From the UHGV virus genome UHGV-0115803: 53,738 nt of DNA. One strand, written 5' to 3'. The notes beneath the pieces are model-generated. The model worked only from the letters and a program-made list of their open reading frames with translations, made no database searches and was not told the DNA's origin. The position numbers and the translations under genes are program-made. Positions 1 through 20,721 of this stretch are shown here, in pieces (position 1 is the first letter of the stretch; every line of letters begins with the position of its first letter). The stretch comes from a virus.

Positions 1-395
1 AAAATCACCTCATTGTCATTTTAACAGGAATCAATCATCGAATCACTAATAACTATGTATTAGGCGGCACATGAACTTTAAAGGAAGAGGAGCTACTCAC
101 TTCCTTGTCATTGAATTTTTTGGGTGTGCCGCCATCGTTAAGATAAGCTGAGAAAGAAGCTGTTCACCTCCTTCTTTTTTGTAGGTAATGTGAGTAGCCT
201 ACAAAAATTTAAGATAACTCTTTATATCAACGGCTAGTTCAGATGGTTGTTCATTTACTCCACTTTTTAGCAGTTGTCCTGTTTATGATGTTCGTCTGAC
301 TAGCTGTAAATATACTAATTTGATAATAATAGTATATAGCAGAAAAACGTGATTAACCCGCCAAATATCCCGCAAAAAACCGCCAAAATAATTGT

Positions 396-812
396 TCAAC
401 GATATGCGATCAATCTGCCTTTTTTATAAGCTTCAGCAAATTCAATTAGAGCTTCTGACATTAGTCTTTCAACGCTGCGCTCAGAGTAGCCAATTTCACG
501 GCCGATTTTATAATTAGAATAACCATCAGGTGCACAGTAGCGGTAATAGAGAACTTGACGACTTGTTATTCCCAAAGACATCAAAGCTGCTAAAATAGCA
601 TCTCTTTCAGCTTCAGCTTCCATAAATTGGATCATTCCGTCTTCCGCCTTGTTCCCCCATCTATCGCCTTTTGGCATGTCTGACATGACTGGTGATTTAA
701 TATCTATCATTGACTTTCCCGCTATACGTACCCACTTACGATAATTTTTCAATATTTTTCTTGCATTACATTTAGTTTGATAAAAATCGACTTCTCTCAA
801 TAGCTCTATCAT
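396..812 (-). CDS. ArpU-family (sigma-70 region-4-like) phage late transcription regulator
   Basis: 138 aa with a C-terminal HTH (ITSRQVLYYRY...IGREIGYSERSVERL). In the circular-map reading it sits upstream of the small-terminase region, the usual ArpU position. Confidence 0.55.
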   Translation of the reverse strand: MIELLREVDFYQTKCNARKILKNYRKWVRIAGKSMIDIKSPVMSDMPKGDRWGNKAEDGMIQFMEAEAERDAILAALMSLGITSRQVLYYRYCAPDGYSNYKIGREIGYSERSVERLMSEALIEFAEAYKKGRLIAYR

Positions 813-887
813 GCCATCCGCTCCTTATGCTATAATGTTATTGACTAGATAACATTTAGCGCTGAGCGAAAGCTTGGTGTTTTTTTG

Positions 888-1075
888 TGATATAATCGTT
901 GTGAGCTGGGCTTTTCCTTCAATGGGCGCAAGCATATTTCAACTAGCTCAGGGCTGCTATATCGGGTAGCAGTCCTTTTTTTATGCTATAATCCAAGCAG
1001 GCTAGGTTTCACTCGCTTCCTACAAACGAATTTCTAGTCTATTGGTCGCCTCTTAAGGAGCTGCGGCCTTTTTAT
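888..1075 (+). ncRNA. Two tandem plus-strand minigenes: extended -10 promoter (TGaTATAAT ~888-896; TGcTATAAT ~984-992), ~75-nt transcript, intrinsic terminator (~952-982; ~1042-1075). The first carries the conserved box AAGCATATTTCAACTAGCTCAG
   Basis: Hairpin GGCTGCTA..TAGCAGTCC followed by T7. The conserved 22-nt box recurs at ~2732 and ~3003. The units are antisense to the minus-strand early ORFs. Confidence 0.35.
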
Positions 1076-1272
1076 CTTTCAGAATCAGTTAAATTGATGC
1101 CGTTTATTTTAGCTTCAACATAAAGTCTGTTTAGAGTATTTCTCTCATTATCAATGTATTTTTCTATGGACGCTCGAGCAGTTGGATTTTGTTTTGTTTT
1201 CAGTTCTTCTTCGAGCAAAGCAATCTTATCTTTTTGTAACGCTATTTGTGATCGAATCCTTCTAGGTATCAT
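1072..1272 (-). CDS. hypothetical phage protein (66 aa, coiled-coil)
   Basis: ORF in the early operon. Confidence 0.35.
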   Translation of the reverse strand: MIPRRIRSQIALQKDKIALLEEELKTKQNPTARASIEKYIDNERNTLNRLYVEAKINGINLTDSER

Positions 1273-1313
1273 TTGAAACCTCTTTAATTGGCGACGTTAG
1301 CGGAAAGCTAACT

Positions 1314-1565
1314 TTATTCTTCAAATAGCTTATTCATGTCTATTTCTCTAAACTTCTCTTTGATCCGAACTAATATTTCAAAGCTTGGCTTCCTGAAATC
1401 ATTCTCCATTTGTCGGTAGTATCCATACGAAAGATTTAAAGCTTCGGCCATTTGACGCTGAGTCAATCCTGCTTGCTGACGAAAACTTTTTAAATAATCC
1501 ATGTCTACACCTCCTGGTAGAGACGTTAAGGCAATCCTATCTGAACAACAATCGATTTTACCCAT
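1314..1565 (-). CDS. XRE-family HTH DNA-binding protein
   Basis: GLTQRQMAEALNLSYGYYRQMEN helix-turn-helix. Confidence 0.5.
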   Translation of the reverse strand: MGKIDCCSDRIALTSLPGGVDMDYLKSFRQQAGLTQRQMAEALNLSYGYYRQMENDFRKPSFEILVRIKEKFREIDMNKLFEE

Positions 1566-1870
1566 TCGTATTTTTCTACTGCATCAGTCGCGGTTTTATC
1601 TGCTATTTCATCATCAACCTCTGCTGGTATCTCATCTAGTACATTTTGGACCAGTTCTTCAAAATCATAGGTCTTGAAATAGATTCGTTTTCCGTTATCC
1701 CAAACATAATCAATCTCCGCTCTTCCAAATGAGCCTAACCAAGTTGTGTGTTCATCACTAGCTACCACTTCACTGTCAACCATCGGAACAATTGGTAGAT
1801 CAGGATTTTTTTTGATCAGATTAAGTAGCTCCGTCACATTTTCCATTTGAATTTCGCTTTGTGTTTTCAT
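1526..1870 (-). CDS. hypothetical phage early protein
   Basis: ORF only. Confidence 0.4.
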   Translation of the reverse strand: MKTQSEIQMENVTELLNLIKKNPDLPIVPMVDSEVVASDEHTTWLGSFGRAEIDYVWDNGKRIYFKTYDFEELVQNVLDEIPAEVDDEIADKTATDAVEKYEWVKSIVVQIGLP

Positions 1871-1891
1871 CAGATTCCCCTCCTATATACG

Positions 1892-2260
1892 CTAATTAAT
1901 AAGCTCCACCTTAAATACATGGCGATATTGAGAACTGATTCGTTCTCCTGCCTCGTTTTCATCAAGAGCAAATATTTTAATGGATTCCACCGGATTTGAT
2001 TCAGTCAAAACGTTCGTAAAGAACACCTTAAACTCTTTTTCTTTTAAGAAATCTCCTTCGTCCATCATGTCACTCGCCCATGACTTATCATCATTATCAA
2101 ACTGTCCAATGAAACTATCCTCAGAATCTACCTTTGGATTGTAAGCACAATATCTGATGGGGACAATTTCCAAACAATCTTCGTGATAATATTTATATTC
2201 AACTTCCACAATATCTTCAAACTGACGAAAGGTTTTATCACAAATCGGACATTTTTTCAT
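1892..2260 (-). CDS. hypothetical Cys-containing protein (CPICDK...)
   Basis: ORF; N-terminal CxxC. Confidence 0.4.
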   Translation of the reverse strand: MKKCPICDKTFRQFEDIVEVEYKYYHEDCLEIVPIRYCAYNPKVDSEDSFIGQFDNDDKSWASDMMDEGDFLKEKEFKVFFTNVLTESNPVESIKIFALDENEAGERISSQYRHVFKVELIN

Positions 2261-2661
2261 TGTTCCACCTCCAACAACTCTTTATCCTCGTAGATGTTTC
2301 CGATTACTTCTATTGGTAAATCAACGCTATATAATAATTCGAATTCAGTATCAAGATTTTTATAGTCAAGATAGAACCCGCCTTGTACAAATCTGATTAC
2401 TGACATACCATCATTTAATACGTCTCCGATAATCTTCACTATATCCCCCTCAAATATCTCCACGCCATTCTTGTCTTTAAGGCCTGTTGACTGCATTAAT
2501 TCAATATCTTCAAAACGATACCAGTCTAAACAAGTAGTACAGGTGCTATCACCACAACCATTTATTCCTACTGGTTCATCGTCTATGCCGTTAAGAGTGA
2601 GATCATTAACTGGATAAATTTTCTTCGATTTTTTTATATAAGCTTTAAACTTCGGTATCAT
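2257..2661 (-). CDS. YopX-like phage protein
   Basis: DKNGVEIFEGDIV motif typical of the YopX family. Start moved to M27 (ATG preceded by GGAAGTGAG); the upstream part of the listed ORF overlaps a repeated intergenic element. Confidence 0.5.
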   Translation of the reverse strand: MIPKFKAYIKKSKKIYPVNDLTLNGIDDEPVGINGCGDSTCTTCLDWYRFEDIELMQSTGLKDKNGVEIFEGDIVKIIGDVLNDGMSVIRFVQGGFYLDYKNLDTEFELLYSVDLPIEVIGNIYEDKELLEVEQ

Positions 2662-2697
2662 ATTACTCACTTCCATTTCTAATTTGTTGTACAATAG

Positions 2698-2786
2698 TGA
2701 TGAGCTGGCCCCTCCTTTTTTCAATCGGGTTAAAAGCATATTTTAATCAGCTCACGACCGCTGACCAATCCCCAGCGGTCTTTTTT
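2698..2786 (+). repeat. Copy of early-region repeated element (box AAAGCATATTTTAATCAGCTCAC + hairpin GACCGCTG..CAGCGGTC + T6)
   Basis: Related to the ~901-982 and ~2965-3059 copies. Terminator stems vary with compensatory changes. Confidence 0.4.
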
Positions 2787-2952
2787 GTTACAAATTATTT
2801 ATGACTTATTTCTTCTTAACTACCGTTCGCGCTTGAAACTAAAACGGTTACTTGTTACGCTTTTGGTGTCTTTTGAGAAGACACCAATTGTGCGCAGCTA
2901 GGTTCCCCACCTAGCACTAGACTGCCGTTTCATACCGCGGTAGTCCTTTTTT

Positions 2953-3059
2953 GTGTTATAATTTAAACGAGCTAGGTTCTTCCTTGTTGATTTCATTAAT
3001 CTGAAGCATATTTCAACTAGCTCAGAGACCGCTGCCACCCAATGTTCAGCGGTCTTTTT
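2953..3059 (+). ncRNA. Plus-strand minigene: extended -10 TGtTATAAT (~2954-2962), conserved box (~3003-3025), terminator (~3027-3059)
   Basis: Same architecture as 888-982. The surrounding 2790-3100 region is densely hairpinned (GGTGTCTT..AAGACACC; GCTAGG..CCTAGC). Confidence 0.35.
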
Positions 3060-3100
3060 CTATGCAATCGCTTCGGTTACCGGAAATAACAATCACTTGA

Positions 3101-3472
3101 TCAGTGCTCAAGCCACATGCTGTCATAACTTTCAATTTCGTTATCATTTCCTACCGATTCGCCGCCCACCGTATAAAAAGTAATAGTGTCCTCTTCATAG
3201 CAATCTTCGCAATATCTTGTATGCTCATCTTGCTTAATGTAAGTATCTCCAACAGACAAATCTTTATCGCAAGATTCGCAATATAAATCGATTTCTTCTT
3301 CGCCTAAATATTTCGTATAGTAGCTAGCTCGTTGATTATCAGGAACCAGTTTAAGAGCTCTTTCTTTCGTTCTTAAGTATCTTTTTTCAATAATTCGATC
3401 ATTGAATACAGTTCCTACTACGTACTTGGTTAACTTCATTCTCACACCTACACTTTCTCGATCAAACCCCAA
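3101..3472 (-). CDS. hypothetical Cys-rich (zinc-binding?) protein
   Basis: CESCDKD...CEDC motifs. Confidence 0.4.
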   Translation of the reverse strand: MGFDRESVGVRMKLTKYVVGTVFNDRIIEKRYLRTKERALKLVPDNQRASYYTKYLGEEEIDLYCESCDKDLSVGDTYIKQDEHTRYCEDCYEEDTITFYTVGGESVGNDNEIESYDSMWLEH

Positions 3473-3651
3473 GCTTTCGCCTGAAGCTTATACCTGTACT
3501 GATTGTCTTTCAGGTAAGCCAATCTATTACTTAGTGACTTCACGCTTTCCAACATGCACCACTGTCTTGCTTGTTCAAGTTCATATTCCAATTGATCAAT
3601 CTCGTCTTGGTGATCTTGAATGATTCCCATAATGTTTTTCATGTTTAGCAT
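3448..3651 (-). CDS. hypothetical protein (67 aa)
   Basis: ORF only; overlaps neighbour. Confidence 0.3.
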   Translation of the reverse strand: MLNMKNIMGIIQDHQDEIDQLEYELEQARQWCMLESVKSLSNRLAYLKDNQYRYKLQAKAWGLIEKV

Positions 3652-3660
3652 CTCTCACAC

Positions 3661-4257
3661 CTACACTTTCTCGACTGTGCCGCCGAGATTTTTAGCCACC
3701 GAAGAAGCTGTTCCCTCATTTTTATATTTGATAATCGACTCATCTTCACCAAGCACCGTGTTCATCACAAATTGAGCAGTGGTATCTTCCCAACCACAAA
3801 AATATAAATTACCAACTTTAACCACCCACTTCGGTTCTTCCTCGACCTCGTAGCCGTCTAGCCAAGCGCGCATATATTTTTCAGGATGTTTAACAAGCCA
3901 ATCAATAGCGTTCTCATTTTCCCCAGCTTTGTCTTTCCTGCAATACCAATCTTTAAAGGTAATTAGTAATGCCAATAGGTCGACATCAGTCGAATTACGA
4001 TAATAGTCAAGTAATTCTCCAACACATTTTGGCACTTTGACTTTCTGCGGTTCTTCTAATTTGGTAAGGACACTTTTTGCTATTCCCAAACCTGCAAAGA
4101 CACCTGTGGACAATGTTTTGTTATTGGCTTCTACGCCTGTGCTTGTTGCTACATGAAAAAATTGGGTACTTGTTGTTTCAAGTTCTTCTAAAACTTCTTG
4201 TTTATTCATTTCATACCTCCTAAATTCTATGTGATCAAAAAGTTGATTAATGATCAC
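3661..4257 (-). CDS. hypothetical phage protein (DUF1642-like?)
   Basis: 198 aa; family assignment from memory only. Confidence 0.4.
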   Translation of the reverse strand: MIINQLFDHIEFRRYEMNKQEVLEELETTSTQFFHVATSTGVEANNKTLSTGVFAGLGIAKSVLTKLEEPQKVKVPKCVGELLDYYRNSTDVDLLALLITFKDWYCRKDKAGENENAIDWLVKHPEKYMRAWLDGYEVEEEPKWVVKVGNLYFCGWEDTTAQFVMNTVLGEDESIIKYKNEGTASSVAKNLGGTVEKV

Positions 4258-4438
4258 ATAGATTCTTACTTGATAGGCTGAGATTGCGGATCTTTTTTAC
4301 CGTCAGTCGTAGTTGTTTTAAACATTTTATAAATATACGTGTTATACTGATGAAGAGCTGAAGAAAACAGTCGAAGTACATCAATTCAGCTCTAAGCCAG
4401 CTGCGGAAACAGCTGGTTTTGTTCATCAATCATCGGTA

Positions 4439-4765
4439 TTGTTACGTTTTACTTACGTTTACCCACTTATTCACACTAATCTCCTTTTTGATGCTATGGT
4501 TATTAAGTACCATAAGGATGTGAAAACAATGATTAACTTTTATCCTGTACACGTTTATGTTTCTAATTATCGAATATACGCTTCCCTAGAAAAAGCGAAC
4601 TTTGATAGTTCCCATACGAAGCCTATTAAAAGTCTATTTGCTGTTTTAAACTTAAAGGAAATCAAAGCTATGAAAATGAAACTTTTCATCTATGACCTTG
4701 ACATCAATAGTTTTGATAAAATGCAAGATGCGATAAACGATTGTCAAACGCAAATGAATAATTGA
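4439..4765 (+). CDS. hypothetical protein on the opposite strand within the early region (possibly starting at MINFYPV ~4529)
   Basis: Only sizeable ORF in the 4258-4821 gap of the minus operon. Followed by a perfect plus-strand terminator. Confidence 0.35.
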   Translation: MLRFTYVYPLIHTNLLFDAMVIKYHKDVKTMINFYPVHVYVSNYRIYASLEKANFDSSHTKPIKSLFAVLNLKEIKAMKMKLFIYDLDINSFDKMQDAINDCQTQMNN

Positions 4766-4770
4766 TACTT

Positions 4771-4800
4771 ACACTGAGCTTAGTACTCAGTGTTTTTCTT
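4771..4800 (+). terminator. intrinsic terminator ACACTGAG-cttagta-CTCAGTGT + TTTTTCTT
   Basis: 8-bp perfect stem plus T-run read directly from the sequence. Confidence 0.6.
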
Positions 4801-4821
4801 TGATTGGCGTGGTTAGCAGAA

Positions 4822-5103
4822 CTAACCGCCTAATTCAAAAGTGTTTTTCATACTTGATCTAAAGGCTTTTAGCTGATTTTCTATGATAGTATCTTTTACT
4901 TCGAACCGATCTTTGATTAAAGGTGCTGCCATGTCTTTTGCATAGCTTTGCCTGATATTTACCCTTTGGTTACCGATTTGTTTTACAACATCACGGCCAT
5001 TAATAATACTTTGAATATCGGCTTCACTTAAAATGATCTCCATCATTCGCCGTCCTCCCGTAGTAAAGTTTTCTCGCAGAAACGTTGCATCTGTGCCATG
5101 CAT
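4822..5103 (-). CDS. hypothetical protein
   Basis: ORF. Confidence 0.35.
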   Translation of the reverse strand: MHGTDATFLRENFTTGGRRMMEIILSEADIQSIINGRDVVKQIGNQRVNIRQSYAKDMAAPLIKDRFEVKDTIIENQLKAFRSSMKNTFELGG

Positions 5104-5360
5104 ATAACTTTGTCAGGCATATCCAATTTTTGGAAGCTTAAAGTGTATTGAACCGTGATACCACCGTTATTCCGTTTCCAAAATTCAGCCATCGATTGAA
5201 AGTTCTGCATGATTACATATTTCTCTCCATCTAATCGCCCTATTTGAAAATCACATGTATTATTTTTACTCATAAAAACCTCCTTGATTGTTGTCGTTAG
5301 TGGACTAAATACTACCTGTTTGAAAACCATAATGTGCAGTTTCAACGCCGTCATAATCAC
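5043..5360 (-). CDS. hypothetical protein
   Basis: ORF; overlaps neighbour by 60 nt. Confidence 0.35.
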   Translation of the reverse strand: MIMTALKLHIMVFKQVVFSPLTTTIKEVFMSKNNTCDFQIGRLDGEKYVIMQNFQSMAEFWKRNNGGITVQYTLSFQKLDMPDKVICMAQMQRFCEKTLLREDGE

Positions 5361-5757
5361 TTATTTCCCACTCAGCCCCATCGGGTATATCAACGACTTT
5401 AAGACTTGCATGTGGTCCACTGGCCTCACTTCCTAGTTTTTCGACAACAGCAACGAGGTCCTTATCACCTCTGTTTGAATCACTTGAAAAACTGGAATCA
5501 TCAGCAATTCCGTACAGTCGGTCAATTTCGCTATAAATTCCTGTAACTTTGTCGATTTTCGGGTCTTTTTTGAAATAGTAGATAAAATCCATCGAACCTA
5601 GCTTTTGGCCTGTGTGTCTCGTGTATTCATCATCTGAGTCATAGCTAAAGTTATTGATGTATGGGAATACTTCAATATTTTTTCTTTTAAAAATTTCCAT
5701 TTTTGCTTCATGGCTCAACCCAAAGCCACCAAAACATTTATTTAATACAATCTTCAT
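5305..5757 (-). CDS. hypothetical protein
   Basis: ORF. Confidence 0.4.
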   Translation of the reverse strand: MKIVLNKCFGGFGLSHEAKMEIFKRKNIEVFPYINNFSYDSDDEYTRHTGQKLGSMDFIYYFKKDPKIDKVTGIYSEIDRLYGIADDSSFSSDSNRGDKDLVAVVEKLGSEASGPHASLKVVDIPDGAEWEISDYDGVETAHYGFQTGSI

Positions 5758-5782
5758 TACTTTTCCTCCTTTGTATCCTCCA

Positions 5783-6244
5783 CTACAGTAGCTTATCTAT
5801 TACTAGATAAACAAATTTCCCTTTATAATTTTCAAGAATTTCAAGAATGTTGTGACCGCCCAATGTAAACGTTTCTGTATTAAATCCTTCAATAGTAAAA
5901 GATGAATACCCATACCAGGTTTCTTTAAATTCAAGTAATCCCATTGAGTCTAGAACGATATACTCTCGTATCTGATCTAACTTCATTCTTTTGTCTGACG
6001 CGTACAGTTCCATTGAAATGTTGTCAGCAATATATCTCCCTGAAATCCCGTTCTCATATTCATCTTCAGTGTGTAAATCGGAAAAACCTAATTTATCAAG
6101 AGCATTGCTAACTAGTACTCGTAATTGACGACCGTCGTCCGTGTCGTAATCTACAGTTTTTGAATTATTTTTAACTAAAAAAATTTCGTCTTCGTCTAAC
6201 CAATGCTCATTGACGACAACCCAGCCTTTAATAATCTGTTTCAC
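5783..6244 (-). CDS. hypothetical protein
   Basis: ORF. Confidence 0.4.
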   Translation of the reverse strand: MKQIIKGWVVVNEHWLDEDEIFLVKNNSKTVDYDTDDGRQLRVLVSNALDKLGFSDLHTEDEYENGISGRYIADNISMELYASDKRMKLDQIREYIVLDSMGLLEFKETWYGYSSFTIEGFNTETFTLGGHNILEILENYKGKFVYLVIDKLL

Positions 6245-10591: not shown

Positions 10592-11521
10592 CTAAAATGG
10601 AAAATCATCGTCTTTATTTGTTGAATCTTCCTTCTCATCAAAAAGTCCAGTCTGCTCTTTACTTTCTGTTTCATCAGGGGATATTTTTTCTGCTTCCTTA
10701 CGCTCTGTTTCTATTGGTTCCACCTCGCTCAGTCTTGTTTCTTCTATCAGATCATCGTTTTCATCCAATCTGAATACTTTTTCATCTGATGTAACGGCTG
10801 TTTGCATTTCAACAGATAGTATTCCCCATTTAGAAAGCATATTTCGAAGCACAGTTTTAATTGCCATTTGATTGTAGTTATCAACCCATGCACCTGACAG
10901 TTTTTCTTTGTCTTTCCCCTTCGCATTCTTGATGCGATGCGACTCAATCTCTTGTTTTGTCCAATAGACTGTTTTTTTGAAACCATTTAACAGTTCGAAG
11001 TAACCAACATATCCAATGACTTTATCTGATTTCTTTGCGTTATAATCGAAAGTGAATTCTTCTGTTAATGGATTCCAATCAACGAGTTGGCCTTCATAAA
11101 CTTCAAGTGCATTCAATGCTTTATACTGCCCTGAGCGTTGAGCTAACTGAATGTAGCCTTTGTACCCAAGTATGAACTGGGCCTCATTGTGAGTAATCCA
11201 CTTGTTTCCTTTCTTTTCGCTTCGATTAAACGGAACAATATATGCGTAACCAAGATTTTTATCAATTGGCAAATCCATTGTTGCTGCTTTTAGAGCAGAA
11301 GCAATAATTGTCATTGGTTCAGCTTTTGCTAAATAATTGTCACCGCCGACTAAAGTCATTAGAGATCCCATGAAAGAATCAGATTTTTCATGAAGAATAT
11401 CTTGGAATTTCTTCTTCATTGTCGGTGTAGCCATCAAAGACTTAAAACCCAGTGACTGAGCATCAACTTCTTGTGTCTTTTGTTCAGTAAGTTGATTCTT
11501 GAGTGTGTCATTTGTTGCCAT
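10592..11521 (-). CDS. recT: RecT-family single-strand annealing protein
   Basis: 309 aa; placed immediately downstream of a YqaJ-like exonuclease gene. Confidence 0.7.
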   Translation of the reverse strand: MATNDTLKNQLTEQKTQEVDAQSLGFKSLMATPTMKKKFQDILHEKSDSFMGSLMTLVGGDNYLAKAEPMTIIASALKAATMDLPIDKNLGYAYIVPFNRSEKKGNKWITHNEAQFILGYKGYIQLAQRSGQYKALNALEVYEGQLVDWNPLTEEFTFDYNAKKSDKVIGYVGYFELLNGFKKTVYWTKQEIESHRIKNAKGKDKEKLSGAWVDNYNQMAIKTVLRNMLSKWGILSVEMQTAVTSDEKVFRLDENDDLIEETRLSEVEPIETERKEAEKISPDETESKEQTGLFDEKEDSTNKDDDFPF

Positions 11522-11522
11522 G

Positions 11523-12521
11523 TTAGTTAATCTCCTTTACTGCTAATTTTTTATAGCAAGATGTTTTATAAATAGAATGATCATTGGCTACTTCTGGATA
11601 CTTCTTTTCTAAAAGATCTTTATTAATCGTTTTTCGATTAAATGACTTCCACGAAATTATTGATTTAGGAGTAATAGCAACTACCGCATTTTGTTTTCCT
11701 AACTCCGATGTAATCTGATTATCGATTTGTTGAATTTTCTTTTTTATGAAAGCTTCATCATCCTTAAGTTGTTTCTTGGTCTCAATCAGCTCATCAAAGG
11801 TACTTGAAAGTGTAATCTCATTTTCGCCTTCTTCTGAATATCGTTCCTTAAGGAAATCGGTAGTTGCATCACTGCCATCTATTGCTGGTTCAATTCCTTT
11901 TAAAACATTCACTTCCCAGAATTCAACTAATCGTTCCGTAATCATATCAATCAAGGTTTGATCACGATTGACCTTCTTCCAAATGAAACGTTGACCACCG
12001 ATTAATACTGCTACATAAGCCCAATCACGATTCAAAACATTCATATAATGTTGTATTTGACACAGGTAACTCATTGGAATCTCGTTACCATCCCACTCTT
12101 TGGATAAAAAAGCATTTGCAGTTTTACATTCTAAAATCGCATTTTCTCCAACTACGTCACGATCAATATTTGCACGAAGAAATGGATGTAAGGGATGTTC
12201 GAAAACTTGATTCCGTCTTCGAACTTTTTTTCCAGTTCGCTCGGTAAACTCTTTCGCTACAACTTCTTCTAGTACATTGCCCCAATACGCTGGTTCACTG
12301 TCCGATTCCTCAATTTCAATTTGACCAGTCTTTTCAAGCCATAGTTGATATGGAGCTTTCCATTTATTCAATCCTAGAATCGTAGCAACATCAGAACCAC
12401 CAATACCTTTTTGACGATCCATCAACCATTCTGTTCTGGTCATGTCCAGTGTAGATTTACTCATCTTCAACCCACCCTTCCATATTTTCAGGATTATCTT
12501 CATCATTGGGTATGTGAACAT
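11523..12521 (-). CDS. YqaJ-like (lambda Exo-type) recombination exonuclease
   Basis: GIGGSDVATILGLNKWKAPYQLW...YVAVLIGGQ motifs; paired with RecT. Confidence 0.7.
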   Translation of the reverse strand: MFTYPMMKIILKIWKGGLKMSKSTLDMTRTEWLMDRQKGIGGSDVATILGLNKWKAPYQLWLEKTGQIEIEESDSEPAYWGNVLEEVVAKEFTERTGKKVRRRNQVFEHPLHPFLRANIDRDVVGENAILECKTANAFLSKEWDGNEIPMSYLCQIQHYMNVLNRDWAYVAVLIGGQRFIWKKVNRDQTLIDMITERLVEFWEVNVLKGIEPAIDGSDATTDFLKERYSEEGENEITLSSTFDELIETKKQLKDDEAFIKKKIQQIDNQITSELGKQNAVVAITPKSIISWKSFNRKTINKDLLEKKYPEVANDHSIYKTSCYKKLAVKEIN

Positions 12522-12650
12522 TCACAAAAATATGACACTCTGGGTCCGCCATTGCGGTATCGTAATCAAACATGTTATAATCCTCCTAGATAAACATTGA
12601 TTTGGGACTTACTTTTGCTTGCCGGCGAGTAAGTCTTTTTTTATGTCTTT

Positions 12651-14007: not shown

Positions 14008-14259
14008 TTAGATCACCTCCTTGCTATTACCTTTTGGCAATTCTGTTTGCAAAATAAAAAGCTTGTCAAAATCAGCTTCAGACAAAGCAAAGGTATTAAG
14101 TAACTTTGCAATCATGTCATTCCCTAAACCTCTACTCCCATTCATAATTCGATAAATAGTAGTTGGTGCAACTTCGAGTTTTTCAGCTAGACCATAAACC
14201 GATAAATCATACTGTTCCATTAGTTCCTGAAGAACTCCATTTTTCAAAACAATTTTCAC
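14008..14259 (-). CDS. Cro-like XRE-family regulator
   Basis: 83 aa, HTH (GLAEKLEVAPTTIYRIMNG), divergent from the cI-like gene. Confidence 0.65.
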   Translation of the reverse strand: MKIVLKNGVLQELMEQYDLSVYGLAEKLEVAPTTIYRIMNGSRGLGNDMIAKLLNTFALSEADFDKLFILQTELPKGNSKEVI

Positions 14260-14279: not shown

Positions 14280-14375
14280 TTACCTCATGGTAATACTATA
14301 ACACCGAAATTACCTATTGGCAACACTTAATTACCAAAAAGTCAAATTTTATTCGATTTTGTTACCAGTTGGCAT
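14280..14375. promoter_or_regulatory. Four operator-like sites with a TTACC half-site in the cro/cI intergenic region: TTACCTCATGGTAA (perfect palindrome), TTACCTATTGGCAA, TTACCAAAAAGTCAA, TTACCAGTTGGCAT
   Basis: Read directly from the sequence; classic genetic-switch architecture. Confidence 0.55.
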
Positions 14376-14412
14376 TATTATAAATATAGAAATATGGAGA
14401 AGAGGGATTTGG

Positions 14413-14751
14413 ATGGACTTTGGTTCACGATTAAAAGAATTGAGATTAGCAAAAAAATATGGAGTAAATCAATTAGCTCTTAAATCAGGAGTCAGTTCTG
14501 CACAGATTTCTCGTTACGAAAACGGAAAAAGAAAAACCCCTCAAATTGATACTGTGAAAAAACTAGCAGATGCTCTTGATGTTTCTGTATCAGAACTTAT
14601 TGGGAAGTGTTCAGATTCTGAAAGTAATGAGAGATTTAGTCAAAAACAGTTGACTGTTGCCGCGCACATCGATGAAGATACATCAGAAGAAGATATGAAA
14701 GATATTCTTAATTTTATAGATTTCATAAAAAATCGAGATCACAAGCAGTAA
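14413..14751 (+). CDS. cI/ImmR-like XRE-family repressor (HTH only, no peptidase domain)
   Basis: Start moved to the ATG after GGAGAAGAGGGA. LALKSGVSSAQISRYENGKRKTP is a helix-turn-helix. Confidence 0.7.
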   Translation: MDFGSRLKELRLAKKYGVNQLALKSGVSSAQISRYENGKRKTPQIDTVKKLADALDVSVSELIGKCSDSESNERFSQKQLTVAAHIDEDTSEEDMKDILNFIDFIKNRDHKQ

Positions 14752-14780
14752 TTCATTTTAATATCGGTAGGTGTTGTCAA

Positions 14781-15248
14781 ATGTATAACTATGAAGCTTT
14801 AATGTCATTTTTTTCAAATTTGCAGTATAAATTTGAAAAGAAGATGCCCGAAAAACAAAAGGGATTGTATGTCGACAATATAGTTTATCTCAATCCTAAT
14901 CAATCAAGTGCCGAACTAAAAAGTACGATTGCAGAAGAAATTGCGCATCATTACACTTCAGTCGGTGACATATCAAACTATAAAAATCCTGAGTCAAGAA
15001 AACAGGAACGAAGGGCACGGCTCGTAGCGGCTGAGATGACTGTCCACCCTTCCCTTTTGATCAAGGCTTATCAAAAAGGATGTAGAGAGTATTGGGAAGT
15101 CGCTGACGAGCTGGGAATAACCGTAGAAGCGTTAAAAAAGGCAATTGATCTTTTTAAACAAAAATATGGTGAAGGCTTTTGTTTTTTGAATCATAAGATT
15201 ATTTTTGGATCAGGCGATTCAATTAAAGTAGTAAAAATAAAGCAGTGA
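14781..15248 (+). CDS. ImmA/IrrE-like protein (position-based; HEXXH degenerate: EEIAHH)
   Basis: Directly downstream of the repressor as in immR-immA-int arrangements. No canonical HEXXH motif. Confidence 0.35.
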   Translation: MYNYEALMSFFSNLQYKFEKKMPEKQKGLYVDNIVYLNPNQSSAELKSTIAEEIAHHYTSVGDISNYKNPESRKQERRARLVAAEMTVHPSLLIKAYQKGCREYWEVADELGITVEALKKAIDLFKQKYGEGFCFLNHKIIFGSGDSIKVVKIKQ

Positions 15249-15297
15249 TTTACATATAAATTTATATTTGTGATTTCGTATACATGAGGAGGAAGTT

Positions 15298-16194
15298 ATG
15301 GAGACGGTGTTTACCCTTGTTTTTATTATAGGTTGTATTGGAGCTTGGTATTTCATAAAAAGGAGTCCGAATAAACGTAACAGAAATATCTCTTTTGGGT
15401 TGATAACCTTATCAGTAATAATAATTGGTTTCATTCCAACAACCGAGACTAAAGAAGTGACTTCTAAACCTGTAGAAGAAAAGAAAACCAAACAACAGAG
15501 TAGTGCCAAAATTTCAGATTTAGTTTTAGAGACACCTAAAGAAGCAATCTCTGATGATACCGGAGAAGTTAAAATATCAGGAAAAACTTCGCCAAATGCG
15601 GAAGTATCAATTGGAATGGGAATAGTTGGAGATAAAACAACAGCTGATAAATCTGGCGATTTCATGCTTCTTTATGAATTAAGCAGTCCAGAAACAACTC
15701 TTACAATAAATTCAAAACGTGACGGAGATTCAAAAAGCACTAAGATAAAAGTAAAAATGAATGACAATGCACTCTCAGCATTAGAGGAAAAAGAAGCTGA
15801 AGAATCAAGAAAAGCTGAGTCAAAAAACTTGGAAAAGCAAAAGAGCGAAGAAAGCAAAGAAGCTGAACAAAAAAGAACTGAAGATAGTAAAAATGCTGAA
15901 AACCAAAAAAATAGTGATATCACACAACTCGCGGACGAAGCAACACCGCAACAATCGGATATCCTTACTGAATTGGCATTACAACAATTTGACAAATCAT
16001 ACCCTTATAAAGGAAGTAAACTTCATATTGCTATCGGTAAATTGCAAGATTGGACTCAAAAGGATGGAAAATGGTTTGCTAAATACGAGGCAACAATAGT
16101 AAATGCGTTTGATGCAAAAAGAAGTGCTAATGTTGAAGTAACTATAGAACCTGTATCCGAATCCAGCGGTTATGTTTCGTTCCTTGATTATTAA
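15298..16194 (+). CDS. membrane-anchored K/E-rich surface protein (moron)
   Basis: Two N-terminal TM helices followed by a long charged extracellular region. Confidence 0.45.
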   Translation: METVFTLVFIIGCIGAWYFIKRSPNKRNRNISFGLITLSVIIIGFIPTTETKEVTSKPVEEKKTKQQSSAKISDLVLETPKEAISDDTGEVKISGKTSPNAEVSIGMGIVGDKTTADKSGDFMLLYELSSPETTLTINSKRDGDSKSTKIKVKMNDNALSALEEKEAEESRKAESKNLEKQKSEESKEAEQKRTEDSKNAENQKNSDITQLADEATPQQSDILTELALQQFDKSYPYKGSKLHIAIGKLQDWTQKDGKWFAKYEATIVNAFDAKRSANVEVTIEPVSESSGYVSFLDY

Positions 16195-16217
16195 AATAAT
16201 TTGTTGGAGGTGGTCAT

Positions 16218-16772
16218 ATGGTTGATTGGAAGGAATTAGGGAAAAAAACTTTCGATGTCACTAAGAATGTGACCGAAAAAAGTGTTGACTCTTTTCAGGA
16301 GTGGAAAGACGATCCAAAGCGAATTGCTAAAGTTGAAAAGAAAAAGGCTACAAAAAAAGCACGGAAAGAAATTGAGAAGGCTGAAAAAAGAAAGTCAAAA
16401 ACGAAAGACACTTATCACTCTGATTCAAAAAAGACAAATTCAACTATTTTAATCAAACATGCAGGGAAAACTGAGATCAGCCTGACGGATAAAGCAATAA
16501 CAATAAAGAAAACTGGCGGACTTGATATCCATAAAGGTACAAATATAATTCCATTTAGTAGAATTACTTCTATTCAACTAAGACCTGCTACAAATTTTTA
16601 CGCAGGATATATACACTTTAGTATCCCTGGTAGTTATCCTCCAAAAAATGGACTCACTGATGCAGCAGCTGATGTTAACTCTGTTCTGTTTTCAAAAAAA
16701 TATAATGGGCAAATGGAAGAATTAAAATCCATAGTCGAAAAAATAATTTTGAAAGATGAACTGGAGGATTAA
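16218..16772 (+). CDS. hypothetical protein with a bacterial PH-like C-terminal segment
   Basis: K-rich N-terminus; ISLTDKAITIKK...IPFSRITSIQLRP. Confidence 0.4.
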   Translation: MVDWKELGKKTFDVTKNVTEKSVDSFQEWKDDPKRIAKVEKKKATKKARKEIEKAEKRKSKTKDTYHSDSKKTNSTILIKHAGKTEISLTDKAITIKKTGGLDIHKGTNIIPFSRITSIQLRPATNFYAGYIHFSIPGSYPPKNGLTDAAADVNSVLFSKKYNGQMEELKSIVEKIILKDELED

Positions 16773-16773
16773 A

Positions 16774-17832
16774 ATGAAAAAACTTACGATCGCATTAATA
16801 CTCTGCTCTACCCTGCTCTTCTCAGCCTGTTCGAGCAATAAAAAGGCTGATACGACTGATTCGACAAGAACTAAACTTGCAACAACTAGTAGCAATGAGA
16901 AGATAAACAAAGTTACTTTCAATGATGGAGTCTTGGAAACTAAAGTTTACAAATTGAAAGTTGTTACTTCTGAAGTTATTCAGAGTCCATCCGTTTCTAA
17001 CCCAGGGCTTTATGTAACTTTTGAACTGATTAATAAATCCAAGAAGAATATTGTCCCTTACCAAGTTCTTCATGATATATCATTTAAGCAAAAAACAGAT
17101 ACTTCACTTGTTAATATGACCGCTGAATATCATAGCTCTGATGCATTCGGCGAGGATGTCGAAACGGTCAATAAAATCAACAAGCGTAGTAATGATCAAA
17201 ATAATGAATTGCTACCTGGTAAGAGTATCGAAGTATTCGAAGGCTATTCATTAGAGGATAATATTCACGAAGTTCAAATGTTGCCTGATTTTGATAACCG
17301 TAAACAAAGTGAGTTTAAACCCTATATTATCAAGCTAATCGGAAATACAGATTCCGATGCCGAAGGTTCATCATCCTCACCTACAAATCAGAGCGCATCA
17401 CAAGAAGAAACATATGAACAGTTGAAGCAACGAACACTAAAATCAACACCAACTGACCGCGTGAACTGGTCCAACAAAGAATGGGAAGCATTCGGAATGG
17501 CTTTAAGCGAAAATGGATTAGCTATGGATGATAATGGATATGTCATCACTCAAGCTCAAAAAAATCAAGTTGAGGCTGAAAGACAAAAATCAGAGCAAGT
17601 AACTGAATCCCAAGGTGGCCACGGAGCACCAAAGGTTGTCACATCAGAAGCACAAGCAGTTCAGATAGCACAGAGTCAATTCGGTGATAATAACGGAGCA
17701 TGGACTTGGGGTTGTATGTATGAGGACGAACGTGGCTATTTTGTGAAAGCCACTGATCCCAACGATGGTACTATGACACACACTGCAAAGAGTGTTTTCG
17801 TACACTATGATGGTTCTGTTACGGAAAACTAG
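16774..17832 (+). CDS. lipoprotein (DUF4352-like)
   Basis: Start moved to MKKLTIALILCSTLLFSAC (lipobox LFSAC) after GGAGGA. Confidence 0.55.
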   Translation: MKKLTIALILCSTLLFSACSSNKKADTTDSTRTKLATTSSNEKINKVTFNDGVLETKVYKLKVVTSEVIQSPSVSNPGLYVTFELINKSKKNIVPYQVLHDISFKQKTDTSLVNMTAEYHSSDAFGEDVETVNKINKRSNDQNNELLPGKSIEVFEGYSLEDNIHEVQMLPDFDNRKQSEFKPYIIKLIGNTDSDAEGSSSSPTNQSASQEETYEQLKQRTLKSTPTDRVNWSNKEWEAFGMALSENGLAMDDNGYVITQAQKNQVEAERQKSEQVTESQGGHGAPKVVTSEAQAVQIAQSQFGDNNGAWTWGCMYEDERGYFVKATDPNDGTMTHTAKSVFVHYDGSVTEN

Positions 17833-17933
17833 TTTTCAATATCTTATATGTCTTGACTTATTCTATATAACTGGCGACTATCGCTACCTGCCATAAGTGG
17901 GAGTAAAATTTGAATTTATTGGAGGAAAAGAAA

Positions 17934-18560
17934 GTGAAAAAGGTATTATTAGCTTCTATTGTTATTATCTCAATGTTAGGGTTAGTTGGTTGTAGTGGAG
18001 AATCAGATTCTAGTAGTGAAGTACAGGTTAGCAAAGCGTCAACATCTATCACTGATAGTTCAACAAAAAAGAAAGAAAAATCTACTGAGGCCGCTGTTGG
18101 CAAACGATCTAATCCAGTTCCACTTGACTCTACCGCAACTTTCGATACCACTTATTACAGTGAAGATAGTGAAGATATACCCGCAAATATTTCAATGACT
18201 ATCTCAAATGTTATTCGGGGTGATGAAGCAATGAACTACTTAACTAATGCAAACGAGTTCAATGAAGCTGCTCCTGAAGGAAAAGAATGGTTATTGTTTG
18301 ATGTGACTATGAAAATGAATAAGGGTAGCCAAGATGACGCATATTACGTAACCCCTTCATTCATTCCAATAAGCTCCACTGGTGAAGAAGTGTCTCAGGA
18401 TACCTATGGAACTTTAGCAGATGGAGAAGAATTTGGGAATAAAGACCTATATGAAGGAGGAACTCAAACTGGGAAAGTCGCTTTATTAGTGCCGACTGGC
18501 GACGATACTTTGGTTGAATTCCAAGATTTTAATACTGGAGTATTCTTTAAATTACAATAA
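17934..18560 (+). CDS. lipoprotein (DUF4352-like)
   Basis: GTG start after GGAGGA. Signal VKKVLLASIVIISMLGLVGC (lipobox LVGC). Confidence 0.5.
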   Translation: MKKVLLASIVIISMLGLVGCSGESDSSSEVQVSKASTSITDSSTKKKEKSTEAAVGKRSNPVPLDSTATFDTTYYSEDSEDIPANISMTISNVIRGDEAMNYLTNANEFNEAAPEGKEWLLFDVTMKMNKGSQDDAYYVTPSFIPISSTGEEVSQDTYGTLADGEEFGNKDLYEGGTQTGKVALLVPTGDDTLVEFQDFNTGVFFKLQ

Positions 18561-18570
18561 TATAAAGATC

Positions 18571-18590
18571 AGCCCTCGGGCTTCTTCCCC
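18571..18590 (+). terminator. intrinsic terminator AGCC-tcg-GGCT + TCTT
   Basis: Hairpin after the lipoprotein gene. Confidence 0.4.
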
Positions 18591-18625
18591 ACCTGGCGCC
18601 GCCGGTTCGATTCCGGCTTGGGGAA
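18585..18625 (+). other. tRNA-3'-half-like fragment / minihelix (TCCCCA..GCCGG-TTCGATT-CCGGC-TTGGGGA-A)
   Basis: Perfect T-arm (GCCGG/CCGGC with GTTCGATT loop) plus a 7-nt acceptor-like strand that pairs with an upstream TCCCCA. No D arm or anticodon arm. Confidence 0.4.
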
Positions 18626-18653
18626 TAAAAAACAAATTTTTTGGGAGGTAAAT

Positions 18654-19514
18654 ATGTCGAACGCATCTGAAGATCCAAAAATAATATCTTTCATTAATAT
18701 GAAAGGCGGTGTTGGTAAAACAACTCTTTGTAAGGAAGTTGGATATCACTTAGCAAAAATCAGAAAGAAAAGAGTTTTATTGATTGATACCGATCCACAA
18801 GCTAATTTAACTCAATCATTTTTTAAAAAGTTTCATTTAAAACAACCTGGTTCAATGTTAGAAGGTGAAGACTCTTTTGAAGAATCTTCAGCAAGTATCA
18901 ATAATCTCTTCAAGAGTGATGGTATAGACCCTTCAAAAAAACTAGTAATAAGAAATCTAGATGAACAATTATCAATTATCCCTGGTGATCTAAATACTGT
19001 TTTTATGTCTAGAAATACTGATTCCTCAACTATGAATCAGTCTATTTACAATTTTCTTTTTATGAATTCTAGTTTTGAAAAATCTGAATACGATTATATT
19101 TTGCTGGATTGTCCACCGACATACTCTGAATACACAATCTCTGCCATCTTAGCTAGTACACATTACATCATTCCAGTTAAACCTGACAATTATTCAGTTC
19201 TTGGAATACAGATGCTAGAAAAAGTGATTCAGGATATAAAGAAGAAAAATCCTATTTACTTTAAAGAAAAACCAATAAAGAATATTGGTATAATTTTTAC
19301 GGATTTGCCCCTAAGGGTTGCAACTGGACAGGCAGAAACGATAAAATTGATCAAAGAAACTAAAAAACTGGAACCTTTTTACTTTTTCCAATCACATTTT
19401 TTAAAAAATAATGGCTTTTTCAAAAAGCTTGATTACTTTGTTGACGCCAGAAACAGTGAAAAGTCAAAGGAAAATCTTTATGCATTAGTTTCTGAATTAA
19501 TAGGGAGGTTATAA
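18654..19514 (+). CDS. ParA/MinD-family deviant Walker-A ATPase
   Basis: NMKGGVGKTT, DTDPQANLT and ILLDCPP motifs. Start at the ATG after GGGAGG (the listed ORF begins at an upstream TTG). Confidence 0.7.
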   Translation: MSNASEDPKIISFINMKGGVGKTTLCKEVGYHLAKIRKKRVLLIDTDPQANLTQSFFKKFHLKQPGSMLEGEDSFEESSASINNLFKSDGIDPSKKLVIRNLDEQLSIIPGDLNTVFMSRNTDSSTMNQSIYNFLFMNSSFEKSEYDYILLDCPPTYSEYTISAILASTHYIIPVKPDNYSVLGIQMLEKVIQDIKKKNPIYFKEKPIKNIGIIFTDLPLRVATGQAETIKLIKETKKLEPFYFFQSHFLKNNGFFKKLDYFVDARNSEKSKENLYALVSELIGRL

Positions 19515-19515
19515 A

Positions 19516-19908: not shown

Positions 19909-19909
19909 T

Positions 19910-20563: not shown

Positions 20564-20570
20564 AATCTTA

Positions 20571-20590
20571 AGCCTCCGGGCTTTTCTTTT
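20571..20590 (+). terminator. intrinsic terminator AGCC-tccg-GGCT + TTTTCTTTT
   Basis: Read directly from the sequence. Confidence 0.5.
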
Positions 20591-20601
20591 AACGAACAAA
20601 A

Positions 20602-20615
20602 CGAACATACATTCG
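20602..20615. promoter_or_regulatory. Cheo-box-like LexA site CGAACATACATTCG (13/14 to CGAACRNRYGTTCG) upstream of the small gene and integrase
   Basis: Matches the Firmicutes LexA consensus with one mismatch. Confidence 0.45.
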
Positions 20616-20721
20616 TATTCGTTGCTGTTTTATTCGATAGTCTAAGGAAACGTGTGAAAATAATCTTTTTTTGCACGTGTTTTCGAATCGTATACAAAAT
20701 ATTTCGAAAGGAAATGATTTT

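Follow-up and report, generated by a model that had tools for sequence, protein, structure and literature searches.

What are the short transcription units that lie between the early lytic genes of this phage, pointing the other way? The window analysed here, the whole stretch of 53,738 nucleotides, is a circular temperate phage of the Enterococcus avium group (~53.7 kb). Its - strand carries cro and the genes for YqaJ/RecT, YopX and ArpU; its + strand carries cI and the genes for ImmA and integrase. A tRNA-like gene at 27330-27401 is the sole match in the window at the Rfam gathering threshold. Among the early genes, an initial annotation had noticed repeated + strand promoters and terminators accompanied by a conserved 22-nt box. 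It suggested that these encode antisense RNAs that limit read-through or, alternatively, antitermination RNAs of the put type.

The gene at the end of the early operon makes the question a pointed one. ArpU of the window is 64% identical to ArpU of phiFL2A, which experiments showed to be needed for terS expression (PMC3753634). On the circular map arpU is the final early gene ahead of the terminase genes, and it is faced by an array of three + strand units (E, A and D). How is arpU itself transcribed? A scan of the window detected neither a promoter nor a terminator on the - strand in the interval that separates arpU from the gene upstream of it, which leaves read-through as the way arpU must be reached; on the same ground, + strand RNAs made there should overlap the early read-through transcript. 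We also looked for a sense (-) promoter within the conserved box: TTGAAA is there, but no -10 box lies at the correct spacing.

Anatomy of the + strand cassettes

Opposite the early lytic operon, the window holds five intact copies of a + strand cassette (A, D, B, C and F) and one decayed copy. They are confined to gaps between the early genes and lie on the strand of cI, immA and int; all genes flanking them are on the - strand. Each cassette consists of an extended -10 promoter (TGnTATAAT) without a -35 box, exactly 6 nt of spacer, a clamp-loop and a strong intrinsic terminator. The clamp is a 7-bp stem, 5'-GAGCURG / CYAGCUC-3', that closes an open loop of 24-41 nt. The terminator T-run of each cassette adjoins the next promoter. 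The predicted RNAs would be about 75-95 nt long, starting at the G of GAGCURG and ending at the intrinsic terminator. The features are as follows.

396-812, - strand: arpU-like late-gene activator gene (phrog_248 'transcriptional activator', E = 9e-41)
828-888, + strand: unit E; antisense extended -10 promoter TGCTATAAT at 828-836
888-983, + strand: cassette A; promoter TGATATAAT at 888-896, 6-nt spacer, clamp arms GAGCTGG (903-909) and CTAGCTC (943-949), terminator at 951-982
984-1073, + strand: cassette D, the divergent member; promoter TGCTATAAT at 984-992, clamp arms AGGCTAG (999-1005) and CTAGTCT (1034-1040), terminator at 1044-1073
2257-2661, - strand: YopX-family early gene (Pfam YopX, E = 8e-25), its 5' untranslated region faced by cassette B
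2688-2786, + strand: cassette B; -10 box TACAAT at 2690-2695, clamp arms GAGCTGG (2702-2708) and TCAGCTC (2747-2753), terminator at 2756-2786
2822-2952, + strand: decayed cassette; -10 remnant TGTTACGCT at 2853-2861, terminator at 2920-2952
2954-3059, + strand: cassette C; promoter TGTTATAAT at 2954-2962, clamp arms GAGCTAG (2969-2975) and CTAGCTC (3017-3023), terminator at 3025-3059
4341-4424, + strand: cassette F, outside the interval first noted; promoter TGTTATACT at 4341-4349, 6-nt spacer, clamp arms GAGCTGA (4356-4362) and TCAGCTC (4387-4393), terminator at 4398-4424

The box that first marked these elements is not a chance repeat: AAGCATATTTCAACTAGCTCAG occurs exactly at 930-951 and at 3004-3025, with 0 expected in 100 shuffles. 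It had been credited to three or four copies. This holds exactly for A and C and approximately for B (18/22 at 2734-2755), but D has no strict box. D nonetheless keeps the promoter, the spacing, the terminator and the clamp, in which positions 1 and 2 differ from those of A, B and C on both sides (G-C to A-U; A-U to G-C). The box had also been described as lying outside any stem, and its conservation served as the argument that these are more than ordinary intergenic terminators. That argument misreads the structure, for half of the box is stem: its 3' part, CTAGCTC, serves as the clamp's 3' arm by pairing with GAGCTRG at the predicted 5' end of the RNA. The conclusion itself stands on other grounds. 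The -10 box, spacing, clamp and terminators are conserved or co-vary in many related prophages.

The promoters and terminators bear out their first description as autonomous + strand units opposite the early genes. TGnTATAAT followed by RGCTRGG is found on the + strand at 888, 984 and 2954, against 0.3 expected, and TGnTATAAT boxes cluster on that strand in the region. An intrinsic terminator follows every unit on the + strand, and the T-runs at terminators are on that strand exclusively. A repeat finder independently recovers the promoter/5' arm and box families (D1-D3).

Between the clamp arms the copies differ. The loop of A (33 nt) contains CUUUUCCUUC and AAGCAUAUUUCAA; that of D (28 nt) has CUUCCU, that of B (38 nt) has CCCCUCCUUUUUU and that of C (41 nt) contains UUCUUCCUU and AAGCAUAUUUCAA, while the loop of F (24 nt) has no CU-rich motif. 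Cassette A folds at -30.8 kcal/mol (z = -3.4), and the folds of B and C have z = -4.0 and z = -4.2. A covariance model built from relatives matches the window four times, always on the + strand: at 891-951 (A, E = 1.2e-10), 987-1042 (D, E = 1.4e-5), 2690-2755 (B, E = 6e-13) and 2957-3025 (C, E = 1.8e-11), an E range of 1e-5 to 6e-13. The model is insensitive to short-loop members and misses F, so its counts are lower bounds. After F comes a + strand ORF with its own terminator, an arrangement that recurs in the related locus L158.

Hairpins between 2790 and 2950 are present as reported and belong to a decayed sixth cassette. It has a hairpin at 2822-2848, a perfect hairpin at 2863-2887 and a collapsed clamp, GCTAGGT-ucccc-ACCTAGC, at 2897-2915. 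A full-length homologue in another locus, L031, carries TGTTAAAAT, an identical hairpin, GAGCTAGG ... CCTAGCTC and an identical terminator.

Two promoters lie close to translation signals of the opposite strand. Fifteen nt separate that of B from the complement of the YopX gene's ribosome-binding site. That of unit E, which precedes A, starts at a distance of 5 nt from where the Shine-Dalgarno sequence of arpU has its complement. Unit E has no clamp stem; its predicted RNA would be about 45 nt long, with a terminator hairpin and T-run at 858-886.

Conservation and distribution

Related prophages carry arrays of 5-8 cassettes; about 13 loop types occur among them, and terminators have been swapped. 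The covariance model finds 104 + 17 matches in related loci and arrays of up to five detected units; in L017 eight units can be counted by eye. Of 111 units scored for orientation, 77 clearly oppose the flanking ORFs and three share their strand; the remaining 31 are ambiguous, for instance because shadow ORFs or an IS30 transposase gene upset the strand count. The typical site is directly upstream of a late-gene activator, either ArpU or another sigma-region-4 protein. In all ArpU loci examined, type A plus unit E lies immediately upstream of arpU; in L017 the eight units face another sigma-region-4 regulator (phrog_36), after which come the terS, terL and portal genes.

Alignment of the copies with loci of related phages yields the covariation that the initial annotation had proposed to look for there. 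In the clamp, 99% of cells are paired, a percentage that is circular in so far as members were partly picked by a scan requiring pairing; two-sided changes, present in four of the seven pairs, and the box-selected and neighbour-selected members are free of that circularity. Which strand is the RNA? The clamp has 10 G.U cells and one A.C cell, and this ratio would reverse were the - strand the RNA; the excess therefore points to the + strand. Consensus folding with RNAalifold predicts the clamp alone and no conserved inner helix within the loop. In the promoter, 18 diverse members agree without exception at T1, A2, A5 and T6 of the -10 hexamer, and the sequence of the 6-nt spacer varies freely. 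The terminator stems, said at first to vary with compensatory changes, do so: in related prophages identical RNA bodies are followed by differing terminators. Conservation is higher in the clamp loops than in spacers or terminator loops, and motifs are common to cassettes at different positions, CUCCUUUU near the 5' arm and AAGCAUAUUUCAA beside the 3' arm. The anatomy, strand, family and genomic placement of the cassettes are thereby established in silico.

The cassettes are found in prophages of the E. avium group only; a covariance-model search found no homologues in phages of E. faecalis, E. faecium or E. gallinarum. Matches in a genome collection to Oscillospiraceae, two Alphaproteobacteria and Pseudoalteromonas (n = 4), and several pattern matches in IMG/VR, were treated as chance, as none has a significant covariance-model match at E <= 0.01. 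Unit E reaches much further. An equivalent stands upstream of arpU in 80 of 80 IMG/VR ArpU loci, in phiFL2A, phiEf11 and phages of E. faecium and E. gallinarum, and in phages of Latilactobacillus, S. pneumoniae, S. pyogenes and S. thermophilus. A predicted antisense promoter-terminator abutting the arpU ribosome-binding site is conserved across at least four genera of Lactobacillales. The E. gallinarum phage EG-TP1 has small membrane-protein genes at the corresponding site. The site is a general hot spot for antisense-oriented accessory genes.

Has this RNA been described before? At the gathering threshold of Rfam 15, no family matches the cassettes anywhere in the window. Between 700 and 3300, at E <= 10, only three matches arise, all to unrelated families (isrD, snR41 and ZNRD1-AS1_1); the best, isrD, scores 20.9 bits against a threshold of 37 and aligns with a terminator alone. 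BLAST searches of GenBank phages, in near and distant modes, and of plasmids found no cassette match: the region matched through the YopX coding sequence and a chance 32-nt stretch of Salmonella, and nothing else. By these comparisons the cassettes constitute a previously undescribed multi-copy family of predicted structured RNAs in phage genomes. A protein-coding reading was rejected: the small ORFs on both strands lie in different frames with no ribosome-binding site, and differences in loop length are not multiples of three. So was the antitoxin RNA of a type I toxin-antitoxin system, as no hydrophobic toxin ORF lies opposite. The - strand ORFs over A, B and C (MLAPIEGKAQL..., MLLTRLKKGG... 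and MLQINEINKEE...) are non-hydrophobic and unlike one another in frame and length.

Possible functions of the RNAs

We favour, at somewhat less than an even chance, the view that the cassettes are sibling genes for small RNAs whose antisense pairing, together with convergent transcription, counteracts read-through into the late activator. Opposition to read-through was one of the two functions first suggested and is the best supported, although we infer it, like expression itself, from sequence. Each cassette has its own promoter and terminator and lies opposite its presumed target transcript, as do cis-antisense RNAs of phage regulators. The sigma-A extended -10 promoter would start each RNA at the G of GAGCURG, and the RNA could then act by two routes. 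In the first, it would be perfectly complementary to the early transcript, its open loop would pair fast with the mirror-image loop there, and the resulting duplexes would be expected substrates of RNase III. In the second, repeated firing from several convergent promoters would lead to collision with, or blocking of, incoming polymerases. The cassette terminators would keep antisense transcription out of the early genes. The outcome would be a threshold or delay for the late genes, and leaky expression would be silenced in lysogens.

Several observations count against such a brake. The RNAs reach neither the start codon nor the Shine-Dalgarno sequence of the gene that they face; in the cases inspected, their 5' ends are estimated to lie about 25-50 nt upstream of the latter. 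Cassettes B, C and F are 2-4 kb away from arpU, and the site also hosts other antisense accessory genes, as in EG-TP1. Nor would a purely cis role account for loop motifs shared between positions, or for loops more conserved than spacers.

These last features suit a different reading, which we regard as possible but doubtful: the RNAs are trans-acting siblings whose loop mimics the anti-Shine-Dalgarno sequence of 16S rRNA (CCUCCUUU / UUCCUU) and pairs with ribosome-binding sites of host or phage. Their antisense position would be incidental, merely where accessory genes are tolerated. The cassettes are indeed several homologous genes, each autonomous with its own promoter and terminator, and in about 8 of 13 loop types a CU-rich motif lies 2-4 nt past the 5' arm of a loop predicted to be single-stranded (A, B and C are included; in D the motif is mid-loop). 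AAGCAUAUUUCAA and CAAUSGGG are common to several loop types. However, a CU motif is missing from 4-5 loop types and from copy F, and the CU bias is partly compositional, the + strand being C- and T-rich throughout the cassette region. The CU-rich motif stands 5' of CAU, an order that does not suit colinear pairing with a stretch from Shine-Dalgarno sequence to AUG. Finally, when duplex energies were computed for possible trans targets among the ribosome-binding regions of the phage's 89 candidate genes, none paired better with the real small RNAs than with shuffled ones, and Rfam gave no homology to the known LhrC or csRNA families.

Could the target be another phage? Constitutive prophage RNAs might bind the early transcript when a relative bearing the same cassette enters the cell, and block that phage's route to the late genes, and the shuffling of cassettes and diversification of loops would then reflect an arms race. 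The promoters have a constitutive look and share a strand with the lysogeny genes, the cassettes are modular and shuffled among phages with many loop types, and there is an experimental precedent in the prophage antisense RNA STnc6030, which excludes superinfecting BTP1 (PMC7067206). We nevertheless think exclusion unlikely: phages of the same immunity are already stopped by repressor, and the targets would lie in untranslated intergenic RNA, where pairing need not harm the incoming phage.

It is also unlikely that the RNA is functionless and the cassettes are passive or selfish modules, spread by recombination at the T-run / -10 junction or kept as mere insulation. Mosaic exchange of terminators and bodies, the decayed copy in the window and the narrow host range, restricted to E. 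avium-group prophages, would all fit. But the clamp is maintained through two-sided changes, the -10 box and spacing are invariant, and placement relative to the late activator is kept even where the activator family differs. To a bolder idea we give only a slim chance: the arrays may be a phage-borne library of 'clamp-and-loop' guide RNAs, with the invariant clamp GAGCURG/CYAGCUC as a handle for a dedicated protein or RNase III and the hypervariable 24-41 nt loops as exchangeable targeting modules, diversified by cassette shuffling, that silence competitor phages or reprogram host translation.

Very improbable is an RNA that acts in cis on + strand transcripts through antitermination, put-like or otherwise, or through attenuation: a structured RNA directly 5' of a terminator does give a superficially leader-like layout of promoter, domain and terminator, and a + strand ORF follows F, but no + strand gene lies downstream of A-D, each strong terminator is directly followed by a fresh promoter, the fold is a single clamp stem with no Rfam match, and terminators are so freely exchanged behind the same RNA body that no conserved alternative pairing is possible.

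The proposed antisense brake on the late activator bears on a poorly understood matter: how temperate phages of Gram-positive hosts time the passage from early to late genes and keep such activators (ArpU, RinA, Ltr) silent in lysogens, beyond the fact that the activator is part of an early operon under repressor control (PMC3753634). Insulated antisense RNA genes stacked ahead of the activator offer a concrete candidate, simple to mutate, for a device that sets a threshold or delay, and so does the widespread single antisense promoter abutting the arpU ribosome-binding site. A position used in EG-TP1 for antisense-oriented small protein genes can, it appears, hold RNA genes instead.

Comparison with known systems

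HK022 put-type RNAs are promoter-proximal in a long operon on the same strand, let polymerase pass terminators downstream and so reach genes, and have a conserved two-hairpin fold; cassettes A-D do not fit this pattern, and each has one 7-bp clamp with an open loop. Closer in organisation are the multicopy CU-rich small RNAs of Firmicutes, Listeria LhrC1-5 and the streptococcal csRNAs. Like them, the cassettes are sibling genes, some in tandem, with their own promoters and terminators and with single-stranded CU motifs that could pair with Shine-Dalgarno sequences. LhrC and the csRNAs, however, are encoded in the chromosome under the control of two-component systems, and their trans targets are proven, whereas the cassettes are carried by prophages, have consensus-like promoters and lie nearly always antisense to an operon.

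In the E. faecalis plasmid pCF10, the convergent promoters of prgQ/prgX and the Anti-Q RNA set the threshold of an operon. What we propose is similar in kind: on an enterococcal mobile element, convergent transcription and a small countertranscript would set a downstream threshold. pCF10 relies on one promoter pair with a long overlap, and its sense RNA contains a defined attenuator terminator; the phage has many short insulated units, and no sense-strand terminator was found.

Among phages, lambda OOP is antisense to cII, the paQ transcript to the late regulator Q, and P22 sar to ant. OOP is also summarised in PMC7067206. The cassettes share with these a short terminator-ended RNA with its own promoter opposite a lytic regulator, whose level it would be expected to lower. 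They differ in forming up to eight homologous tandem units with a conserved clamp, in having no sequence relationship to the three, and in lying in untranslated gaps rather than over a coding sequence or ribosome-binding site. STnc6030 of the Salmonella prophage BTP1 is a 786-nt RNA over late structural genes for which phage-phage exclusion has been shown (PMC7067206). It too is a prophage RNA antisense to lytic genes, but single and long, whereas the cassettes form a family of small structured RNAs arrayed in the early region.

Cassettes within the early region

Gene order, together with terminase genes adjoining its end, means that the window reads as a circularly permuted temperate phage genome. 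Its terminase and that of P335-type Lactococcus phages share 80% identity. The leftward-running early lytic operon ends with arpU, the late-gene activator gene, directly beyond which lies terS.

Gene map of the window
14317-22217, plus strand: cI-like gene, ImmA, integrase
14008-14259, minus strand: cro-like HTH gene, early operon
10592-12521, minus strand: YqaJ and RecT genes, early operon
3661-4257, minus strand: DUF1642 gene, early operon
2257-2661, minus strand: YopX gene, early operon
1314-1502, minus strand: small HTH gene, early operon
396-812, minus strand: arpU, early operon
28.5-53.3 kb, minus strand: late genes, with the terminase genes adjoining the window's end

ArpU shares 64% identity with its counterpart in phage phiFL2A, which belongs to a repressor-controlled early operon and has been shown by experiment to be needed for terS expression (PMC3753634).

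Two other features of the map deserve mention. Between the lysogeny/accessory block and the late genes lies a tRNA-like gene (27330-27401, minus strand; Rfam, 38.6 bits). ARAGORN assigns it no amino acid and makes an abnormal call for its anticodon loop, of two bases ('ca'). Two consecutive gene junctions (3440-3461 and 3653-3674) carry identical copies of a 22-nt direct repeat, TCTCACACCTACACTTTCTCGA; on the minus strand each copy spans the last codons of one gene (…EKV, stop) and the ribosome-binding site of the next, and may be a recombination joint between gene modules.

The gaps between early genes hold short units on the opposite strand.

Antisense units of the window
828-888, plus strand: unit E, short and without a clamp stem
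888-983, plus strand: cassette A
984-1073, plus strand: cassette D
2688-2786, plus strand: cassette B
2822-2952, plus strand: decayed copy
2954-3059, plus strand: cassette C
4341-4424, plus strand: cassette F

The initial annotation rested on a repeated 22-nt box, extended -10 promoters and terminators, and these are borne out. The box is exact at 930-951 and 3004-3025 (0 expected by chance), and B keeps 18 of its 22 bases. The pattern TGnTATAAT-N7-RGCTRGG occurs three times on the plus strand against 0.3 expected. Plus-strand terminators stand behind every unit, and positions 1-6000 contain nine terminator-like sites against 3.1 expected. The box is not, as had been thought, a non-stem element, because in the folds a closing stem pairs the 5' end of the RNA with the 3' end of the box. 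Its 3' part, CTAGCTC, is one arm of this clamp; the other, GAGCTRG, lies where transcription is expected to start, exactly 6 nt past the -10 hexamer. The predicted transcripts of A, B and C fold alike, their first bases pairing with the last bases of the box, followed by the terminator hairpin (z -3.4 to -4.2). The 'perfect hairpins' said to pack 2790-3100 do exist; those at 2790-2950 are the remnant of a full cassette that is intact in a related locus, L031.

Cassette F has a perfect clamp and a short loop (24 nt) without a CU-rich motif. Directly after it, inside the minus-strand early region, comes a plus-strand ORF (4439-4793; 78-108 aa, according to which start codon is used), equipped with a terminator of its own at 4771-4793. 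The ORF resembles an accessory gene in antisense orientation, and read-through from the F promoter may express it. F recurs unchanged, in the same arrangement, in one other contig (L158).

A family of arrayed small-RNA genes

Scans for exact patterns find the repeats in prophages of Enterococcus avium, E. raffinosus, E. malodoratus and E. hulanensis. Scanning IMG/VR for the box alone returned 31 loci, every one a true homologue, with three near-invariant body types (A, B and C); the terminators behind them are swapped or differ through compensatory stem changes. Around these matches lie tandem arrays. L017, another related locus, has eight consecutive units in ~1 kb. In each, a -10 box, a 6-nt spacer and GAGCTNN precede a loop of 28-45 nt that differs from unit to unit; then come the arm complementary to GAGCTNN and a terminator, its T-run directly adjoining the next promoter. 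With a descriptor scan, and with another IMG/VR scan that took the -10 box and two arms as sole criteria, the distinct loop types come to ~13.

A covariance model (R1) built from 18 diverse members finds A, D, B and C alone in the window, all on the plus strand, and leaves F undetected. It finds 104 copies in the first 40 related loci and 17 in the next 27, and none in phages of E. faecalis, E. faecium, Enterococcus sp. or E. gallinarum. No similar elements were found in Rfam, GenBank phages or PLSDB plasmids.

Two variations on the arrays were seen. One member, GGGCTAG ... CTAGCCC (L017 3300-3420, minus strand; equivalents in L002, L005 and others), has a further long hairpin, GAGTTAGGT ... 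ACCTAACTC, between clamp and terminator, making a larger, two-domain variant. The arpU-proximal cassettes are separated from the distal array, in an E. malodoratus prophage (L031 1074-2033) and in the IMG/VR counterpart of that prophage (L032 4030-4989), by an ORF whose N-terminal sequence suggests an IS30-family-like transposase.

Are these RNA genes, and on which strand? In the -10 box T1, A2, A5 and T6 are invariant over 18 members, and the spacer is free. In the clamp 99% of cells are paired, a figure that is partly circular since some members came from a scan requiring pairing, and 4 of the 7 pairs show two-sided changes. The clamp is nevertheless kept in members chosen by the box alone or by array adjacency, and the two-sided changes in D, GGGCTAG/CTAGCCC and GAGCTGA/TCGGCTC are independent of pairing-based selection. 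Ten cells are G.U wobbles, against one A.C; on the minus strand those ten would be mismatches. RNAalifold recovers the clamp unaided and predicts no conserved structure inside the loop. Hairpin T-runs occur on the plus strand only. Protein coding is excluded because frames differ among copies, indels are not multiples of three and a ribosome-binding site is absent. We conclude that the cassettes form a genuine family of phage small-RNA genes, arranged in arrays and not catalogued before.

Position relative to the late activator

Relative to flanking ORFs, 77 of 111 units are clearly opposite, 3 lie on the same strand and 31 are ambiguous, the count being confused by, for example, shadow ORFs or an IS30 transposase gene. 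Type A lies directly upstream of arpU, with unit E always before it, in every ArpU locus examined. In L017, L037 and L038 a different protein, of 162 aa, takes this place opposite the array; in L017 it matches sigma-70 region 4 and belongs to phrog_36, and the terS, terL and portal genes come after it. The array thus keeps its link to the late-activator position even when the activator family is replaced. Between arpU and the gene upstream of it we found neither a promoter nor a terminator on the minus strand, so transcription must cross the array to reach arpU.

In unit E a perfect antisense TGnTATAAT lies 2-5 nt away from the Shine-Dalgarno complement of arpU and is followed by an RNA of 35-60 nt and a terminator. 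The unit stands just upstream of arpU, on the opposite strand, at window 828-888 and in L041-L045, L073-L077 and L078-L157. It is present in phiFL2A, phiEf11, E. faecium phage 4995_2, vB_ElaS_B1578 and EG-TP1, in all 80 IMG/VR ArpU loci (79 with the terminator) and in phages of Latilactobacillus, S. pneumoniae, S. pyogenes and S. thermophilus; a Lacticaseibacillus phage has the variant TGGTATGAT at this position. TGnTAnAAT occurs 22 times in 107 kb (the window, both strands), or ~1% per 70-nt stretch per strand, so this recurrence is not chance. Unit E is older and wider than the cassette family, which has a narrow host range yet is attached to this widely conserved antisense unit. No description of an antisense unit abutting the arpU ribosome-binding site was found in the literature searched; unit E may be a general regulator of the late activator.

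A second E-like unit (12573-12642, plus strand) encodes a short RNA with a terminator at 12605-12642. Its TGTTATAAT lies between a strong minus-strand Shine-Dalgarno sequence (AGGAGG) and the ATG of a 38-codon ORF that overlaps the YqaJ exonuclease gene at its start. Transcription of this unit would open with CUAGAUAAACAUUGA, which is similar to the CUAGAUAACAUUUA of unit E.

At the site of B and C, upstream of YopX and on the opposite strand, the E. gallinarum phage EG-TP1 (L045, 560-1100, minus strand of that locus) carries a pair of small membrane-protein genes. A terminator follows each of them, and the first has a clear TGATATAAT promoter. Antisense-oriented accessory units thus have a hot spot here, a general landing place.

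What the cassettes might do

As to function, we can only infer. The most economical reading is that the cassettes build on the conserved antisense unit and turn it into a multi-unit brake that limits read-through into the late activator. They could act by pairing, since every RNA would perfectly complement the early transcript, and loops that a clamp holds open in both partners would speed the encounter. They could also act by convergent transcription from several strong promoters, with the terminators keeping antisense transcription within the gaps.

Three observations count against a purely cis role and make a trans anti-Shine-Dalgarno role of the RNAs a serious rival: cassettes at different places share loop motifs (one like CUCCUUUU close to the 5' arm, and AAGCAUAUUUCAA ahead of the 3' arm), loops are conserved more than spacers, and the RNAs do not extend as far as the ribosome-binding site. 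However, none of the phage ribosome-binding regions scored above shuffled controls, the strand is CU-rich in any case and several loop types lack the CU motif. The cassettes might instead exclude related phages, for which STnc6030 offers an experimental precedent (PMC7067206); cassette shuffling would agree with this. The earlier suggestion of a put-like RNA fails on anatomy. Among known systems, the cassettes are akin to phage antisense RNAs and sibling small RNAs.
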